Shown in pieces: positions 206 to 10,104 of a DNA stretch of 10,104 bases. Numbering within the stretch: position 1 is the first letter of the stretch; the number at the start of each line of letters is the position of its first letter. Origin of the DNA: Candidatus Bathyarchaeia archaeon (GTDB lineage: Archaea > Thermoproteota > Bathyarchaeia > Bathyarchaeales > Bathycorpusculaceae); the NCBI GenBank assembly GCA_049512075.1, contig JBEKXL010000036.1, positions 1 through 10,104 on the forward strand, in the 5' to 3' direction. The translations under genes and the position numbers were made by a program. The notes below the pieces were generated by a model that saw only the letters and a program-made list of their open reading frames with translations, was not told the DNA's origin and did not search any database.

Positions 206-493
206 CTACTCTTTTGTAAGCGTTATTTCTATTGTTGAAACCATCCTTGCTCTGTTCTCGCCTTCTCTCGGTGGCATTTCCTCTGTTCCTATGGAGATTT
301 TGCTTACTTTTAGGTCTTTTAGGAAGCGATTTCTGGTTATTTCAGCCGCGTCAACTGCCGTGGTGATCGCTTGTCCTCTGGCCTTCAAGGTTATTTCTTT
401 AGCATTGCTCGCGGATAGGCTTGTGATAATCGCCATAACATAGTCCATTGGTGTTTTGCTTCCTATGAAAACTATTCCCGATTTTTCCGACAT
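206..493 (-). CDS. albA: Alba-family DNA/RNA-binding chromatin protein
   Basis: 95 aa with Alba hallmarks: VFIGSK..MDYV, ITLKARGQAITTAVDAAEI, ISIGTEE, VSTIEITL. Confidence 0.95.
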   Translation of the reverse strand: MSEKSGIVFIGSKTPMDYVMAIITSLSASNAKEITLKARGQAITTAVDAAEITRNRFLKDLKVSKISIGTEEMPPREGENRARMVSTIEITLTKE

Positions 494-1060: not shown

Positions 1061-1558
1061 CTGTTCATTGCGGATGACGAGACGCTAAAGAAGGTGGCCG
1101 CGTTGTTCGGAGAGGATGCTGTGAGAGTAGTTGAGGTCCTCAAAGGGGTTCACGAGATTACAGATAATGAGATAGCGGATAAAACCCAAATACGCCTCAA
1201 CCTGGTTCGCAAGGCAGTCTACAGGCTCTACGACCACTCCATCGGGGCCCTCAGGCGATGCCGCGACAAAGAAACAGGCTGGTTTGTCTTCAACTGGAGA
1301 CTCCAACCAGACCAACTGGAAGGCTTTATCCTAAACCAAAAGCGCCGTGTTCTCGAAAAACTGGAAACCCGACTTGAATACGAGAAAAGCCACGAGTTCT
1401 ACACCTGCCAAACGCTAGACTGCAAGCGATATCCCTTCGAGGAGGCGTTTGAGCTTCTCTTTAAGTGTCCCGCTTGCAACAAACCAATGATCCACATCAA
1501 CAACGACTTGAGTGCTGAAATCCTAACCAGAAAAATTGAACAAATAAAGGTTCTGTGA
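1061..1558 (+). CDS. tfe: Transcription initiation factor E alpha subunit (TFE), probably starting at CTG 1061
   Basis: Winged-helix part (ITDNEIADKTQIRLNLVRKAVYRLY, RDKETGWFVFNW) plus Zn ribbon (FYTCQTLDC..FEEAFELLFKCPACNKPM). The frame is open upstream of GTG 1094 to CTG 1061, with GGAGG at 1046-1050. Confidence 0.92.
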   Translation: MFIADDETLKKVAALFGEDAVRVVEVLKGVHEITDNEIADKTQIRLNLVRKAVYRLYDHSIGALRRCRDKETGWFVFNWRLQPDQLEGFILNQKRRVLEKLETRLEYEKSHEFYTCQTLDCKRYPFEEAFELLFKCPACNKPMIHINNDLSAEILTRKIEQIKVL

Positions 1559-2132: not shown

Positions 2133-2176
2133 TTGAACCCAATTGGGTATGGGGACGGGCAGCCCCATTATCGGAC
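2133..2176 (+). repeat. Dispersed hairpin repeat, copy A
   Basis: 37/44 identical to the reverse complement of 4739-4782. Contains the palindrome ACCCAATTGGGT and the stem ATGGGG-acgggcag-CCCCAT (2149-2168). Confidence 0.9.
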
Positions 2177-2547
2177 CTGAACCCTTCTGAGCATAAGTAC
2201 GATGGAAGCCTAAACATTTCCAGGTATTAGTCCACCTGCGAAGCGTGCGCTCTCAGAGAAGTGACTTAGGTACAGGCAACTTGGAGAGCATATCCTGTTA
2301 CCAAGGACTCTTTCTAGGTGCCAACTTTCTTAAATGCCCCCAAGCTAGGCAAGCTTTACTCCTGCACGTTTCCTCAAAAGGAAAGAGAGGGTTTCCAACG
2401 ATCCAACCCTGTAGCAAACTGACAGGCACCAGTTGCATTTGTTGGATTGAACCGGGAAACCCATCCAAGGCTGAAGGGTTCCTAAATAAAAGTGTTCCTA
2501 AGAGCACGCTAATTCCCTCGAAACAGAGCTAGGTCTTCTTTCTTTTC
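2149..2547 (+). ncRNA. Candidate large structured non-coding RNA, family unassigned
   Basis: No convincing ORF. Many helices: 2179-2187/2473-2481, 2242-2248/2504-2510, 2265-2270/2497-2502, 2389-2396/2455-2462, 2400-2407/2441-2448, 2369-2374/2379-2384, 2203-2208/2217-2222. G-U pairs favour the + strand. Ends in a pyrimidine tract. Confidence 0.6.
2534..2547 (+). terminator. Pyrimidine-rich archaeal terminator candidate
   Basis: TCTTCTTTCTTTTC immediately after the structured region. Confidence 0.45.
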
Positions 2548-2570
2548 AAAACAACATAGGCGGTGACTGA

Positions 2571-2861
2571 ATGAACCTAAAGAAAGCACTGCCAACAATC
2601 ACGGTTATTCTAGCTGTGATTGCACCAGGATTCTTAGCAGTCAGCGCAGCGATCGACAACGTCAGCCTTAACGCGCGCGCCTGGCACGTCAAATTCAATG
2701 TTCACTATATATTTAACGTGGACTATTCTGGCTCGACTTATCACTTTTTCCTGGTCTTTGCCAAAGCTCGCCCATTGATTATGAGCGTGGGTATCCACTA
2801 TAATGTTTCGCCTTTCCTGCGCGCTCATCACTTTAGCCAAATATTAATCTGCGTAGTTTAA
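2571..2861 (+). CDS. Hypothetical small secreted or membrane-anchored protein
   Basis: GGTGA RBS at 2562-2566. The N-terminus MNLKK + hydrophobic stretch + AVSA resembles a signal peptide. The C-terminal end is uncertain. Confidence 0.6.
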   Translation: MNLKKALPTITVILAVIAPGFLAVSAAIDNVSLNARAWHVKFNVHYIFNVDYSGSTYHFFLVFAKARPLIMSVGIHYNVSPFLRAHHFSQILICVV

Positions 2862-2905
2862 GATTAGTAGTAAAAATGTGTAGACGAAAATTTGGAGGAA
2901 AAGCC

Positions 2906-3554
2906 ATGACAAAGAAGTTGTTTTGGGAGAATCAATATCAAGTTGAGTTCGATGCAACCATAACTAAGATTATTGGAAACAGTGTTGTTCTAGATGCTAC
3001 AGGTTTTTATCCGCAAGGCGGAGGCCAGGTTGGGGACACAGGATACCTTAATGGAATCAGGGTAGTTGACACACAACCAGGCGAAGAAACAGACATCGCT
3101 CACATTCTTGAAATAAGGCCGCTTTTCAGTGTTGGGGCCTTAGTTCATGGGAAAATAGATTGGGAAAGAAGGTATAAGATAATGAGGCTGCACTCTGCGG
3201 CTCACATAGTCTATTTTCTCATGCAAGAGGTTTTTGGAGAAGATTGCAAACCAGCCTCTTCAGGTCTTTTGGACGAAGAGAAAGAGAGGTCAGATTATCT
3301 CTTCGAAGAGAAGTTAGACGAGGAAAAACTCAAGTTGGTTGAAGAGATTACCAATCAAATCATAAAAAAAGGGCTATGAGATCAAAACATGGAGTGAGAA
3401 CGGCAAAAAATATTGGAAAATGGAGCTCTTTCCCGCAATGAAATGTGGAGGGACCCATGTTAAAGATTCGAGTGAAATCGGGGAGATTAAAGTAAAAAGA
3501 GGAAAGAAACCCGGAAAGGGAAAGGAAAGAATAGAGATTAGCCGATTACCATAA
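2906..3554 (+). pseudogene. alaX: AlaX (AlaXp-M type) free-standing alanyl-tRNA editing protein, split by a +1 frameshift
   Basis: GGAGG RBS then ATG 2906. Motifs LDATGFYPQGGGQVGDTG and RRYKIMRLHSAAH (HxxxH). The CGGTHV Zn motif and GKGKERIEI end lie in the +1 frame (3372-3554) after the A7G3 run at 3364-3373. Confidence 0.9.
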
Positions 3555-3717
3555 GTTTGAGCGTGACCGCATCTTCCTGACGTTTTGTATGTAGCGCGTT
3601 AAGTTGCCAGATCAATTGACGATTTCATACCAACTATTTATCACAGAAAATTGATAGTTCAAATTCCACGAGCTGTCTGACTGGATTGAGATGATGCTGG
3701 ACATTAAGACGTTGCTT

Positions 3718-4543
3718 TTACTGAATTTCACCCCGTTGTCTCCGCAGGGTATCGCTTTCCAAGATTTCTTTTAGGTAATTTACAGGTGTTATAGCCGCAA
3801 TTCCTATGTGATACCTTATTTCGCTGGGCCCATAATGTCCTTTCATGATTCCGAGCAAAAAGTATCTCTCTGGGCCCACCACTAGCTGGTTTGATCTTCT
3901 TGTAGGGCCAAATTTCAAAAAGACAGGCGAACCACTATTTCCCCCAAATGGGAAGCACTCAGCGAAATGGAACTTTGTGCTTCCTTCCGGCATTGGAATG
4001 TCTTCCTCAGACATAAGAGCAAGTTTCCCAAATCTAATGACAGGATTATTTCGTCTTTCTTGTTGTATTTCGGGAGTAAAACATGGGAAAAATATCTCGT
4101 CACCTTCAGCAACTCCTTCTCTTTGAATGACTTCATCGGTAGCGAACATCGTTGCTGGAATTGAGCTAAATTCGTATGTTTCAAGATTCTGGAACCTTTG
4201 GATGAGTGCAAGGTCAACAGCAGGATTGGAATGAACAGTCCATTGCAGGTTCCCTTCTCCGTCTAATATAGGCAATCTAAGAAAACTGACTCCCGCCTGG
4301 TTACTGCTCGAGGACCAGCCTTTCAGATTTACTCTTAAGAATATTTCTGCAAGGTATTTTCCTGGGTTATCTTTTAGCACATGTGTTGCCGTCACGAAGT
4401 ATGGCCAAATTACGTTTTTATTTATATGGTGAGGAACGGAGACAAAAAAAACCAGTGCCCAGAGGATGAACGCCATGAACTTCACCTGAATAAATATAGA
4501 CCACAGTTTTCTTGATAGCACCTATTTCTGAAATAACAGACAT
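3718..4543 (-). pseudogene. Trypsin-like (S1) serine protease, frameshifted near the N-terminus
   Basis: Catalytic triad motifs FVTATHVL, VDLALI and GGNSGSPVF. Removing one base from the A8 run at 4444-4451 restores MSVISEIGAIKKTVVYIYSGEVHGVHPLGTGFFVSV from ATG 4543, including the typical GTGF motif. Confidence 0.85.
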
Positions 4544-4738: not shown

Positions 4739-4782
4739 GTCCCATGATGGGGGTGCCCGTCCCCATGCCCAAATGGTTTAAA
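4739..4782 (-). repeat. Dispersed hairpin repeat, copy B (inverted relative to A, truncated)
   Basis: Minus strand TTTAAACCATTTGGGCATGGGGACGGGCACCCCCATCATGGGAC is 37/44 identical to 2133-2176. Similarity ends after GGAC. Confidence 0.9.
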
Positions 4783-5471: not shown

Positions 5472-5729
5472 TTAGGTGCTAGTGACTATTTCTGCTCCTG
5501 CGGCTACAGGTCCTGATGTCGTGATTTTGATTCTTAAATGGTCTCCGGGCTTTGCGTTACCAACGAAAACTGGGAAACCCTTGATTCTGGCTATGCCTTC
5601 CCCTTGAGGGCTTGTTTCGATTATATCCACTTCGTATTCTTTTCCAGTCTCAACTGGGCAGTTCTCAACGCCTCTGCCACGTTTGCTCTTGGCATTTCTC
5701 GGGCTTCTTTTTCGCGGGCTCATTGGCAT
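5472..5729 (-). CDS. Stand-alone TRAM-domain RNA-binding protein with a basic N-terminal tail
   Basis: PVETGKEYEVDIIETSPQGEGIARIKGFPVFVGNAKPGDHLRIKIT...AEIV matches archaeal single-TRAM proteins. Confidence 0.92.
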   Translation of the reverse strand: MPMSPRKRSPRNAKSKRGRGVENCPVETGKEYEVDIIETSPQGEGIARIKGFPVFVGNAKPGDHLRIKITTSGPVAAGAEIVTST

Positions 5730-6348: not shown

Positions 6349-8263
6349 TCACGGCGCGGGCTTGCATGGTCTGTGAGGCGCCTGCCAAAAACTCTTTATT
6401 CGTTTGGCACAATCAGATGGGCTTCCCACGGTTATCATCTCTTTCGGGTAATAGCTTGGAAGTTGTCGTTTGATGTGAGGTTGGGTAATCCGTTCATCCA
6501 ACATCACTATGCACCCTCTGTCTTTTGCTGACCTGTGGGCACGTCCGCAAGCCTGAACTAGCCGCAGTATGGCTGGGGTCAAATAATCATAAGTTCTCCC
6601 ATTCCCCGGGAACTGTTGTTCAAGATAATCTATGAGTGATTCCTGTAAGCATCCCACGTTGCATATGGCAATCCTATGGTTACAACACATTTGAGGATGT
6701 TTTCAGGGTAGTCCATTACCTCGCTCAGTTTAGCTCCCATTACTCCATACAGAACGTAGTTGGACGAACTTGTCAGCTTCTCAATCACGTCCTTTCTCTT
6801 CGTGTTCGACTCTTCCATGATTATCTTTCTGTCTGTTTTTGTCAATGATACGACCTTGTGCATTAGTCCGTAGCTCGTGAAGACAGCCATATTGCCTTGA
6901 CTGGCGTTGGATATTGCTTCAACGTAGCTTTTCGACTTTTCAAGCATCAAATCGGTTCTTCTCTTGAACTCTGACGACACATCCTCAGCAGCTAGGATAA
7001 CTCTGTTCTCAGGTGGAAAAGAAGGGTCAAACTCTGTCAGACAAACGTTGCTCGGCTCATAGAGCATCAAATCCCTGTAAACGGTTGGAGGAGATAGAAA
7101 ACCGCTCATGAGGATGGTTCCTCGTGCTTCTCTCAGAACTGGATCAACGATCTCTCTTCCATCGAAACTTCTGACTTCCAAAGCAACCCTGTTCTTCTGA
7201 TCTCTTTCGATCAGATGCATATACTTCGGCTCAACGTTCTTGAAGAATCTCTCCATGAACATGCCAATTCGATAATTGTAACTTGAAATTCTCTCAGAAC
7301 CAGATTCAAGTCGCTTCTCTTTCACAAATTCGCCATATTCTTGAAGTGTTGCGGCAGCTTCAAGACCAGATACGTCGTTGTGAGCCAGAAACAAGTCACT
7401 GAGTTCCTGGAGGTTAAGCTGTCTAAGATCTTCGATTCTTAATGTCTGCCGAGCATGCTGAAACACCTCTTCCAAGAGAACGTTTAGACATTCTCTAATA
7501 GATCCGACTGACTCGTGTTCGAAAATTCCAGTCTCCCTTAGGGCTCCTTCTACTGTACTCTCAGTCAATTGATCAGAAAGTAATTCTCTGGCGAATGTTG
7601 GAACATTGTGAGCCTCGTCCACGATTAAAAAGACCTTCGAAAGACCGACTCCGAAGCTCTTTAGTATTGATTCCCTAATCCTCGGATCGAAGACGTAGTG
7701 ATATGTTCCAAGAAAAACATTCACCTTGGGGAGAATCCTCTTCAAGGCTTTGCGAGCACAGAATCCTCGTCCAGACATGAACTCAACCGATTCCTCTGAC
7801 GCAAGAATCCTTTGGGCGCAATCCAAAGCCAATTCCTCCGCCTCTTTTTTCCCTCTGGAGATATTCATATAGAATTTACAGAAGGGCTTGATGGAAGACT
7901 CGCCGTTATCCTTCAGTCTCTTGCACTCTTCAAAAAAGCCAACGTAGGAGAGATCGCCTTTTGACTTCAACGGACACATGTCTTGTTTGCTAAAGAAAGA
8001 GACACTGTTAATGTCTCTCGAGAGTGTTCTCAACTCTTTGAGGTATATGTGCAGCTGGCTTCTGGTTCTGAAGCAGATCATCAATCTGTTTTCCTCGAGC
8101 TGAGGCAAAACTGCAAGCAACGACGCAAGAGACTTGCCTATTCCACATGGAGCACTTCCCACGAAAACCTCTTTGCTTCTAAGTGCCTTTGCTGCCTCTG
8201 AATAAGCGCGCGCGCTTGACTCAAGACATAAATGCGTCTGTCTTCTTGCAACCCTAATATCAT
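6349..8263 (-). pseudogene. XPD/Rad3/DinG-family Fe-S 5'-3' DNA helicase, frameshifted
   Basis: Walker A APCGIGKS, four Fe-S-type Cys (MCP, ECK, FCK, FCA), DEAH, motif III MSG, and motif VI QACGRAHRS in a second frame after a 1-nt deletion at ~6645. A probable second 1-nt deletion at ~8198 joins an N-terminus from ATG 8263 (start uncertain). Confidence 0.9.
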
Positions 8264-8347
8264 ATCATTCCTTGCCTAGGACCCGATGATCCGTTAGGGG
8301 AGGGCAAAATTCATGGTTAGTAGTCTTTACCCGAAGGGTGAGCAATC

Positions 8348-8509
8348 ATGAGATCTGAGCAAGAAATAAAAGACAAGCTGAAAGAGTTTGAGGAGATCAT
8401 GAAGACAAATCCGCGATTCTACGGTTGCCTTGCATACGAATTCTATGCGCAGAAAGACGCTCTCAAGTGGGTTCTGGGACTAAAAGAGCTTTTGGTACCG
8501 ACAACCTAG
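8348..8509 (+). CDS. 53-aa hypothetical protein MRSEQEIKDKLKEFEEIMKTNPRFYGCLAYEFYAQKDALKWVLGLKELLVPTT
   Basis: GGTGA RBS at 8337-8341, ATG 8348, TAG 8507-8509, T6 tract right after. Helical-hairpin pattern. Absent from the supplied ORF track, whose shortest entries are 60 aa. Confidence 0.8.
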   Translation: MRSEQEIKDKLKEFEEIMKTNPRFYGCLAYEFYAQKDALKWVLGLKELLVPTT

Positions 8510-8762
8510 TCCATTTTTTCTCTTAAGTGCCATTATGCAAAGGGTGCATCAAGTGAAGCCAAAGAAAAAGATCGTAGACGGAATACCTCTATGAGAGTGC
8601 TTTCTCGATCATATTGGCTATGCGAAGACTGCCATCAGCGCGCGTATGTGTCTTAAGTGTTACGGTGTAAGGACTCTATCAAATGGTAATGCGTATGCTA
8701 AACGTTAGGGCATTCCTCAAAGGACTTCAATAACTATAGGCAGGTATGCCTGGCAGTTAAGC

Positions 8763-8860: not shown

Positions 8861-9523
8861 ATGGCGAAACATATTTGGAGAGGTAGAGGCAGGCCTCCGA
8901 GCATGTATTCATACAAAGATGGAAGGATTCTGGAGAACCTTGCCAGAATCGCAATGCTGCATAAGGTTGATGCGAGTGAATTTTTCAATCGCATTGTGGA
9001 AGCTTGGAATCACGAAGGGTCAGAATGTGAGCAGTTGGTTATAGAATGTCGTAAGAGGACGAAGAATTCAGCGATTTTTCTCTTCACCACCGGTTGTAAG
9101 ATTGTAGCTCAATTTCCAATATCGATTAGCATCTTGCAAGGAAAGAATCAGCTTGAAAGCTACACGAAAACCATTTTTGCCAGAATTTCCTCGGTCAAGA
9201 ATTTTGAGGGTGTAAACTCTAAGATTGGGGACTTGAAAGTTGGAATGAAAAAGGTCAGCCTCAAAGCAGAGGTGCTTGAGATTCCAGAATCTAAAATCGT
9301 TTACACGAGATACGGAACAACGGCTTGTATATCAAACGCGCTCATCAGAGACGAAACTGGTTCAATGAAAATGAGTTTATGGAACCAGCAGATCAACACG
9401 GTGCATAAGGGCGACGTAATTGACGTCAAAAATGGTACAGTAGCTTGGTTCAGCGGTGAAAGGCAGTTGCGACTGGGGAGAAGCGGAAGCTTAAGCGTCA
9501 TCGAATGCGCGCTCGCACCATAG
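8861..9523 (+). CDS. OB-fold single-stranded DNA-binding (SSB/RPA-like) protein with an extra N-terminal domain
   Basis: C-terminal KIGDLKVGMKKVSLKAEVLEI...ALIRDETGSMKMSLWNQQINTVHKGDVIDVKNG...FSGERQLRLGRSG is a typical archaeal SSB OB fold. Confidence 0.9.
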   Translation: MAKHIWRGRGRPPSMYSYKDGRILENLARIAMLHKVDASEFFNRIVEAWNHEGSECEQLVIECRKRTKNSAIFLFTTGCKIVAQFPISISILQGKNQLESYTKTIFARISSVKNFEGVNSKIGDLKVGMKKVSLKAEVLEIPESKIVYTRYGTTACISNALIRDETGSMKMSLWNQQINTVHKGDVIDVKNGTVAWFSGERQLRLGRSGSLSVIECALAP

Positions 9524-9535
9524 GAAGCGGTGTTA

Positions 9536-10093
9536 ATGCCGAAGACTAAAGCCATAATAAACATTCAAAACGTCGTTGCCGCTGCCACCTTAAACCAGAA
9601 AGTTGACTTAAACGCGGTCGTGAAGAGTTTTCCAGGGGTTGAATATCGGCCAGAACAGTTTCCAGGCTTGGTGTTTAGGCTTAAGAGACCGAAGACAGCC
9701 ACGCTGATTTTCAATTCTGGAAAAATGGTCTGTACAGGCGCCAAATCAGAGCAGGAAGCGCGCAGGGCTGTTATGACAGTTGTTAAAGAGTTGAAGAAGG
9801 GCGGAATAATCATCCTCAGCAAGCCGGACTTGAAGGTTGTGAACATGGTTGCTTCTGCAAGCCTAGGCGGAAAAATAGATTTGGAAGCAGTTTCCACGCT
9901 TGGAAAAACGATGTATGAGCCGGAGCAGTTTCCAGGCTTGATCTACAGGATGGACGAGCCCAAAGTGGTTATACTCGTATTCGCAAGCGGGAACCTTGTC
10001 TGCACCGGAGCCAGAAGAGAACAGGACGTCTATGACGCCGTGCACAAGCTTCACGAAAGATTGGAGGAACAAAACCTCATATTCTACGAATAA
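9536..10093 (+). CDS. tbp: TATA-box-binding protein
   Basis: Two TBP repeats: IQNVVA..YRPEQFPGLVFRL..LIFNSGKMVCTGAK and NMVAS..YEPEQFPGLIYRM..LVFASGNLVCTGAR. ATG 9536 follows GGTG; GTG 9530 is the alternative start. Confidence 0.97.
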   Translation: MPKTKAIINIQNVVAAATLNQKVDLNAVVKSFPGVEYRPEQFPGLVFRLKRPKTATLIFNSGKMVCTGAKSEQEARRAVMTVVKELKKGGIIILSKPDLKVVNMVASASLGGKIDLEAVSTLGKTMYEPEQFPGLIYRMDEPKVVILVFASGNLVCTGARREQDVYDAVHKLHERLEEQNLIFYE

Positions 10094-10104
10094 AAACTTC
10101 ACAC

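Follow-up and report, generated by a model that had tools for sequence, protein, structure and literature searches.

The stretch of DNA analyzed in this report (the window) is an entire contig of 10,104 nt (G000:C36) from a Candidatus Bathyarchaeia archaeon, the genome of which comprises 2.73 Mb in 86 contigs. The Bathyarchaeia, archaea that have not been cultured, are abundant in peat and sediment. Positions 2362 to 2496 of the window carry a conserved element that we regard as a candidate for a new small structured RNA read from the + strand, with a probability of roughly 0.55 to 0.6 on the strength of sequence comparison. The wider stretch of 2149 to 2547, which the original prediction took for one RNA of about 400 nt with crossing long-range helices, is, to judge from its matches in related genomes, a patchwork of accessory non-coding DNA modules that are often joined at tracts of alternating G and C, here written (GC)n. 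The coordinates of all features are collected in Table 1; genome (G), contig (C), locus (L), run (X) and family (f) numbers are our own.

Copies of the element were found in a narrow range of genomes. A 135-nt query (2366-2500) was compared with 401 genomes of the window's order (E<=0.01), and 24 of them match, 20 with real copies (E<=7e-10, 66-135 nt) and four at chance level, with matches of 19-32 nt. A class-wide sample gave matches in 7 of 401 genomes, all in families f1 and f6 of the same order. A covariance model (R1) run on 151 genomes of the order returned only the copies known from BLAST (5/151) and no more distant relatives. With an exact 22-letter core pattern, searched in genome records and in metagenome and viral contigs, we recovered 15 genome records, all of them Bathyarchaeia or Bathyarchaeota metagenome-assembled genomes (MAGs), and 65 metagenome contigs; no viral contig holds the pattern. 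Each genome or record has one to three copies. The window's own genome has two, the second being a recurrence of 2349-2496 at G000:C32:2056-2204 (95% identity). Copies show 74-99% identity in flanks that cannot be aligned, and between f1 and f6 the element retains 74-86% identity in surroundings that show no alignment. Conservation has a sharp 3' edge at 2496, after which most other copies run into a perfect (GC)n tract, directly or behind the same 6-nt linker; the 5' edge is ragged, several copies being truncated at a (GC)n tract. A coding role was considered and rejected: the window's copy is open on both strands, but most copies contain a stop or indels of 1-2 nt, and for this reason the element is not coding.

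The element contains a 74-nt hairpin (2389-2462) made up of helices P1, P2, and P3, with a small hairpin, P0, on its 5' side. Pairing was scored in an alignment (A3) of 82 matches, representing 77 distinct copies, that was fitted to the structure of the model; 500 shuffles and slid partners served as controls. The paired fraction of the P0-P3 cells is 93.0%, compared to 90.0% in the shuffles. Changes on both sides affect 11 pairs (6.6 +/- 1.3 in shuffles and 3-4 in the slid controls) and 54 cells (11.2 +/- 2.9 in shuffles), and further pair types number 33 (25.9 in shuffles); none of the 500 shuffles reaches the observed value for any of these four measures. P1 pairs switch from UA to GC or CG in 9-10 copies (pair 37-107: UA 55, GC 8, CG 1; pair 38-106: UA 63, CG 10). 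In P2, pair 47-92 is UA in 60 copies, CG in 9, and UG in 7, and pair 46-93 is AU in 57, GC in 4, GU in 3, and unpaired in 12. The apical loop and P3 are nearly invariant throughout the 77 copies. There is also an asymmetry between the strands, since P2, with 153 G-U cells, is 92.9% paired on the + strand and would be 73.3% paired on the - strand; for P0-P3 overall the values are 93.0% and 87.7%. One G-U pair, 45-94, is retained in 75 of 77 copies. A possible pseudoknot on the + strand, between the loop at 2414-2421 and positions 2430-2436, is 95.2% paired, and its sole variable pair is AU in 47 copies, GC in 11, GU in 1, and unpaired in 18.

From these patterns we infer transcription, RNA ends, and a possible function. 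The candidate RNA would be about 100-135 nt long, read from the + strand, and carried on accessory cassettes that are exchanged between genomes. Its hairpin would be maintained through compensatory changes, with G-U pairs that fit the + strand, and our guess is that it could bind protein or nucleic acid through the invariant loop at 2413-2421 and the bulge at 2427-2440. Interpretations of the hairpin as a K-turn, H/ACA, or C/D-box structure were set aside, the expected boxes being absent by eye.

A number of observations weigh against a structured + strand RNA. The folding energy of the element is ordinary (z -1.32 for the + strand and z -0.76 for the - strand). For the first 28 copies, RNAalifold finds the long arm with a covariation term of +0.33, i.e., nil, and 5 of the 8 P1 pairs are departed from by broken cells only. 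The covariation signal is due largely to a single divergent clade of metagenome copies, about 10 in number, with a few smaller events in addition, and it was read from A3, an alignment fitted to the model structure. On an unfitted MAFFT alignment (A2), RNAalifold does not recover P1 or P2 and gives 12 pairs with a covariation term of -0.14, a poor consensus that we attribute, judging by eye, to the divergent clade being shifted by one column. For the + strand, neither a conserved promoter nor an oligo-T terminator was shown. By eye, a TATA-like box (around 2481-2490) and a T-rich tract (around 2372-2388) are placed for an RNA of the - strand, and T-rich tracts are present in most, not all, of the divergent copies read; P0 and P1 also pair slightly better on that strand. 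A - strand gene model is thus attractive by eye, conflicts with the G-U asymmetry of P2, and is retained as a caveat only. Matches in RNA libraries (runs X23 and X24 of one study, with 0.07 of the sampled words) and RNA-library contigs of 163 nt, covering 2365-2505, and of 1716 nt, covering 2322-2505 and flanked as in another copy type, come without strand or ends and possibly with DNA present, so that they document presence only, and gaps in their cover carry no information. Finally, 99% identity with G323, across genera, is as compatible with recent transfer as with constraint.

The Rfam 15 covariance models gave no match in the window at gathering thresholds, and at E<=10 the region 1900-2700 gave chance-level matches only, none above 22 bits. 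The original prediction had found no motifs of RNase P, signal recognition particle (SRP), or intron RNAs, and the genome's RNase P RNA (C3:197264-197570) and SRP RNA (C20:30495-30808) lie on other contigs. Its suggestion of an undescribed archaeal non-coding RNA can be kept for the element of about 135 nt at 2362-2496, with its covarying hairpin and lack of an Rfam match, and not for the whole of 400 nt. The element most closely recalls the candidate non-coding RNA "motifs" that entered Rfam from comparative genomics: it is short and intergenic, crosses genera, has no assigned function, and combines a hairpin with some compensatory changes and nearly invariant loops. It differs from them in that it is archaeal, is confined to Bathyarchaeia, is matched by no Rfam 15 model, is bounded by (GC)n tracts within accessory DNA that has been shuffled rather than sitting at a fixed locus, and has an ordinary folding energy.

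Two groups of copies show conservation beyond the element. Five loci forming a clade (L062, L039, L129, L138, and L140) are conserved over some 75-100 nt on its 5' side and some 65 nt on its 3' side, in flanks unrelated to those of the window, and the functional unit in this clade may be nearer 300 nt. In the divergent metagenome clade (L153, L161, L146, L114, L107, and L158), a 39-codon frame begins 24 nt past the element; of the 9 copies extending that far, 6 have the frame open, two have it broken at codon 5, and one is cut by the contig end. The frame could represent a very small gene or, alternatively, non-coding sequence that is conserved.

The surroundings of the element were mapped from the searches of relatives together with BLAST of 1800-2900 against the fetched loci. 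Comparison with Bathyarchaeia MAGs resolves 2131-2680 into six or more modules, which are found apart from one another at other places and several of which are joined at (GC)n tracts; the homology blocks begin or end at 2128/2131, 2167, 2244-2252, 2322, 2349, 2496-2510, and 2680. A contig of the same genus (G004:C13) is 98-99% identical to the window up to 2167 and unrelated beyond. Module C stands apart, with 2156-2200 matched separately in many genomes of the family and longer blocks of 2156-2215 (L017/L094), 2156-2251 (L092), and 2131-2244 (L068) that all stop at or short of the (GC)n-like site. Module D is the left flank in only some copies of the element, the remaining copies having other left flanks: blocks of L029, L051, and L032 begin at 2247-2252 and stop at 2680, and those of L052, L059, and L027 are shared from 2322. 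Genomes G366 and G400 share exactly 2247/2252-2680 with the window. In G323 the left flank of the C32 copy is followed by the element and then by the right flank of the window, with 2349-4001 at 98% identity. This layout is not an assembly error, since DNA contigs from two other runs bridge it, one from X2 across 2043-2469 with one other letter and one gap and one from X5 across 1973-2385 with five other letters; these near-identical strains retain the arrangement of the window.

The (GC)n tracts are a feature of the genome as a whole. The 8-mer GCGCGCGC occurs 646 times, compared to about 30 expected from a first-order model, an excess of about 20-fold. The corresponding 10-mer palindrome has 115 copies in this genome (4 for the reversed control) and ranges from 0 to 121 copies across the 401 genomes of the order, with at least 29 in 22 genomes and 0-3 in most. 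The tracts fall where homology blocks end; the match of 8213-8638 to G004:C14 (95%), for example, is bounded exactly by a tract on either side. Block endpoints fall within 12 nt of a (GC)n-like site in 13 of 53 cases, against a mean of 1.9 and a maximum of 8 in 2000 random placements, the 53 distinct endpoints having been hand-picked from the block lists and not being independent.

The most serious alternative to a structured RNA, unlikely in our view, is that 2349-2496 acts as DNA, either as a mobile element resembling miniature inverted-repeat transposable elements (MITEs) or as a site of recombination or binding, with the hairpin as an inverted repeat. MITEs have their own terminal inverted repeats and a target-site duplication and occur in many copies. 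The element is like them in being small and non-coding, with internal inverted repeats, and in its patchy occurrence at swap points: there are 1-3 copies per genome, near-identical copies are found in different genera, the element sits exactly at the joints of swapped flanks, and most copies have a palindromic (GC)n tract on both sides. An ordinary folding energy also suits a DNA role. On the other hand, its own genome has only two copies, without terminal repeats or a target duplication of their own, and no transposase is common to the 30 loci. The 5' edge is ragged and differs in position among several truncated copies. The flanking palindrome is not specific to the element, and the idea that the (GC)n tracts are its terminal repeats or target duplication was dropped for that reason. 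Compensation of pairs through G-U intermediates, together with the strand asymmetry, is unexpected for decaying inverted repeats, although a hairpin of single-stranded DNA would fit as well.

It is improbable that the element is a neutral relic, i.e., an older non-coding or coding fragment without function that was spread by recent transfer. In close pairs it is no better conserved than its neighbors, 2247-2680 being 95% identical with L029 and 2349-4001 98% identical with G323, and there is no covariation in the first 28 copies. Neutrality is harder to reconcile with the identity kept between f1 and f6 where the surroundings cannot be aligned, with pair statistics above both the shuffled and the slid controls, and with an apical loop and P3 that hardly vary.

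A role as a cis-acting leader, riboswitch-like or an attenuator, for a downstream gene such as the open reading frame (ORF) at 2571-2861 is more doubtful still. The element does lie upstream of a same-strand ORF in many loci, and Alba, its commonest neighbor, is found 320-700 nt downstream in 3 loci. However, the downstream genes differ among copies: of 30 loci, only 7 have Alba and 5 a TRAM protein at a distance of up to 3.5 kb, Alba being found on either side and either strand, and some loci have unrelated genes or a convergent gene downstream. These inconsistent neighbors argue against a leader of one gene family and also against a guide RNA beside a nuclease. In addition, a (GC)n joint separates the element from the downstream sequence, and the ORF at 2571, for which the original prediction proposed a switchable leader, matches no Pfam family, crosses the module joint at 2671-2681, and encodes 96 amino acids (aa) in the window compared to 76 aa in L053.

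The original prediction also raised the possibility of a guide RNA left without its protein. Omega RNAs (or reRNAs) of TnpB and IscB from IS200/IS605 elements overlap or follow a tnpB or iscB gene, with a variable guide directly 3' of the scaffold. The element resembles them in its length, about 130-150 nt, in its possible pseudoknot, and in its sharp 3' conservation edge. It differs in having no tnpB- or iscB-like ORF upstream (0 of 30 loci) and a (GC)n tract, rather than a variable guide, after the 3' edge in most copies; nor do the 30 loci share any transposase- or recombinase-like neighbor, and that proposal falls away. A further reading, in which the element would be the RNA or single-stranded DNA partner of a process of DNA cutting and rejoining at (GC)n tracts, such as a guide or bridge RNA that serves the shuffling of modules, seems to us very unlikely. 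The element has such a tract on either side and is present in 11 of the 22 genomes with at least 29 of the 10-mer palindromes and in 9 of the 379 others, a difference that is confounded by kinship.

That 2149-2547 is one RNA of about 400 nt is hardly credible. The complementary words on which the model was built all exist at the positions given, and the near-identical strains X2 and X5 keep their arrangement, but the numbers and lengths of the helices are those of chance. Compared with 1000 dinucleotide shuffles, 2149-2547 has 8 perfect complementary words of 7 nt (6.3 in shuffles), 3 of 8 nt (1.6), and 1 of 9 nt (0.44), and a helix of at least 9 bp is present in 27.6% of the shuffles. Nor does the folding energy bear out a highly structured region: for 2140-2550 (411 nt) the + strand minimum free energy is -124.5 kcal/mol, against -114.0 +/- 6.2 in shuffles (z -1.70), a value equalled or bettered by 8 of 100 shuffles, and the - strand has z -0.95. 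The crossing helices would draw their arms from modules with separate histories. The 9-bp helix has its left arm in module C and its right arm in module E, and BLAST of 1800-2900 gave 5 rows (4 places) spanning the left arm, 40 spanning the right arm, and none among the fetched relatives spanning both. The arms at 2242-2248 and 2504-2510 pair trivially, each being a degenerate version of the (GC)n palindrome, and the 5' local hairpin (2149-2168) belongs to the module B repeat shared with tRNA-Pro flanks. Blocks shared with relatives break at 2167, 2244-2252, 2349, 2496-2510, and 2680, which is not how a single inherited unit would look. The search for homologues and covariation that had been proposed as a check bears out the local arm at 2389-2462, which is conserved, and leaves the long-range helices with no homologue that holds both arms. 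We conclude that these helices are chance matches between modules or paired copies of the (GC)n palindrome, and that the hairpin is the only part of the model to survive the comparison.

Module B is a repeat related to tRNA-Pro. It has six copies in the window's genome, one of them inverted at 4739-4775 and further short ones on C7, C6, C3, and C14, and of 151 family genomes 41 contain matches, at 1-5 places each with unrelated flanks; in many genomes it marks the joint between them. The 12-mer at 2156-2167 occurs three times in the genome, namely, in the window and at the 3' ends of tRNA-Pro(CGG) and tRNA-Pro(TGG). The first half of the module follows tRNA-Pro(TGG) on C32, and at L073 and L086 the entire module lies within a few bases after tRNA-Pro(CGG). 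These matches suggest that module B derives from the end of a tRNA-Pro gene and its trailer, and it is perhaps an old attachment site. Its fold is ordinary (z +0.13). Translated in one frame, the copies give a conserved peptide, with third-position differences that look synonymous, but a coding role was rejected because in 30 of 34 copies that frame closes no more than 31 codons upstream and the sequences preceding the copies show no relation.

Archaeal integrative elements leave attachment-site repeats at tRNA genes. Module B is like such repeats in that its final 12 letters match the tRNA-Pro 3' end, that it adjoins tRNA-Pro(CGG) at L073 and L086, and that it marks joints of unrelated flanks. 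It differs in that only about one-third of it is tRNA sequence and in that the window's pair is inverted, not direct. An integrase-bearing element between direct repeats was not encountered, with no integrase search made beside the other copies, and the ORFs between the arms of the window's pair match only a tRNA-synthetase-type domain and a trypsin-like peptidase. This inverted pair brackets 2.65 kb that include the element, the ORF at 2571, the editing-domain fragment, and the peptidase, and its repeat could be an attachment site, a transposon end, or a sequence of another kind. At L005 and L006, words resembling a tRNA T arm, with the canonical 5-bp stem and a TTCGAAT loop, stand just upstream of copies of the repeat. 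ARAGORN and Rfam call no tRNA gene there, the sole Rfam match being a tRNA read as a transfer-messenger RNA (tmRNA) 100 nt off; the words may be fragments of tRNA genes or belong to intron-bearing tRNAs.

Elsewhere in the contig, the XPD-type helicase is split into overlapping frames of 510 aa and 113 aa, and the ORF with the alanyl-tRNA-synthetase-type editing domain has 167 aa here versus at least 452 aa in a relative (L035); both look like decayed or frameshifted genes, as would suit a decaying stretch of accessory DNA. The genes for Alba, TFE, and TBP (1-700, 1220-1506, and 9516-10104) each have several matches per related genome at 70-94% identity, and paralogues of these small nucleic-acid-binding genes seem to travel within the same mosaic regions. 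Separately, 1665-1789 has weak matches (68-74%) at 1-3 places each in many genomes of the family and order and may be a conserved small gene or RNA.

Table 1. Features of the window and of related loci, in window coordinates except where a contig is named
Feature	Position	Strand	Remark
Module A	1800/1829-2128		
Module B, tRNA-Pro-related repeat of 36-37 nt	2127/2131-2167		
Module C, second separately repeated stretch	2156-2215, to 2251 in some loci		holds left arm of 9-bp helix
Degenerate (GC)n joint	2243-2250		7-of-8 alternating-GC detector; includes arm 2242-2248
Module D, left flank in some element copies only	2247/2252-2348		
Module E, conserved element	2349-2496, core 2362-2496	+	candidate small structured RNA
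Right joint of E, short linker and degenerate (GC)n	2497-2510		includes arms 2497-2502 and 2504-2510
Module F, shared right flank and start of ORF 2571-2861	2511-2680	+	
Perfect (GC)n tract	2671-2681		
Module G	2688-2809		matches another locus, L015
Small 5' hairpin P0	2370-2373 with 2380-2383	+	
Hairpin P1	2389-2396 with 2455-2462	+	
Hairpin P2	2399-2407 with 2441-2449	+	
Hairpin P3	2408-2412 with 2422-2426	+	
9-bp helix of earlier model	2179-2187/2473-2481		
Long-range helix of earlier model	2242-2248/2504-2510		
Continuation of long-range helix	2265-2270/2497-2502		
Long arm of earlier model	2389-2396/2455-2462 plus 2400-2407/2441-2448		
Possible closing helix	2173-2179/2530-2536		imperfect
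Inverted pair of module B	2133-2176/4739-4782		44 nt, 84% complementary, 2562 nt between arms
T-arm-like words	G000:C6:107980-108060, G000:C3:54400-54500		loci L005, L006
Alternating (GC)n palindromes	150-157, 2671-2681, 8205-8216, 8637-8645, 9507-9516		
Alba	206-493	-	
TFE-alpha	1094-1558	+	
tRNA-synthetase-type editing-domain fragment	2876-3379	+	
Trypsin-like peptidase	3718-4521	-	
TRAM protein	5472-5729	-	
XPD-type helicase, two overlapping frames	6349-8162	-	
OB-fold protein	8861-9523	+	
TBP-like ORF	9530-10093	+	named by eye

A literature search confined to titles and abstract openings found no Bathyarchaeia non-coding RNA family and no (GC)n motif there, and the element, being absent from Rfam, is a candidate small non-coding RNA motif. 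The case also illustrates how a mosaic of repeats can give rise to a first-pass prediction of one large pseudoknotted RNA. If the reading of 2362-2496 as an RNA is true, a conserved, covarying small RNA limited to two families would offer a concrete target for metatranscriptomics and binding studies. The mosaic, with its modules joined at (GC)n tracts and at the repeat related to tRNA-Pro, may be the more interesting biology.

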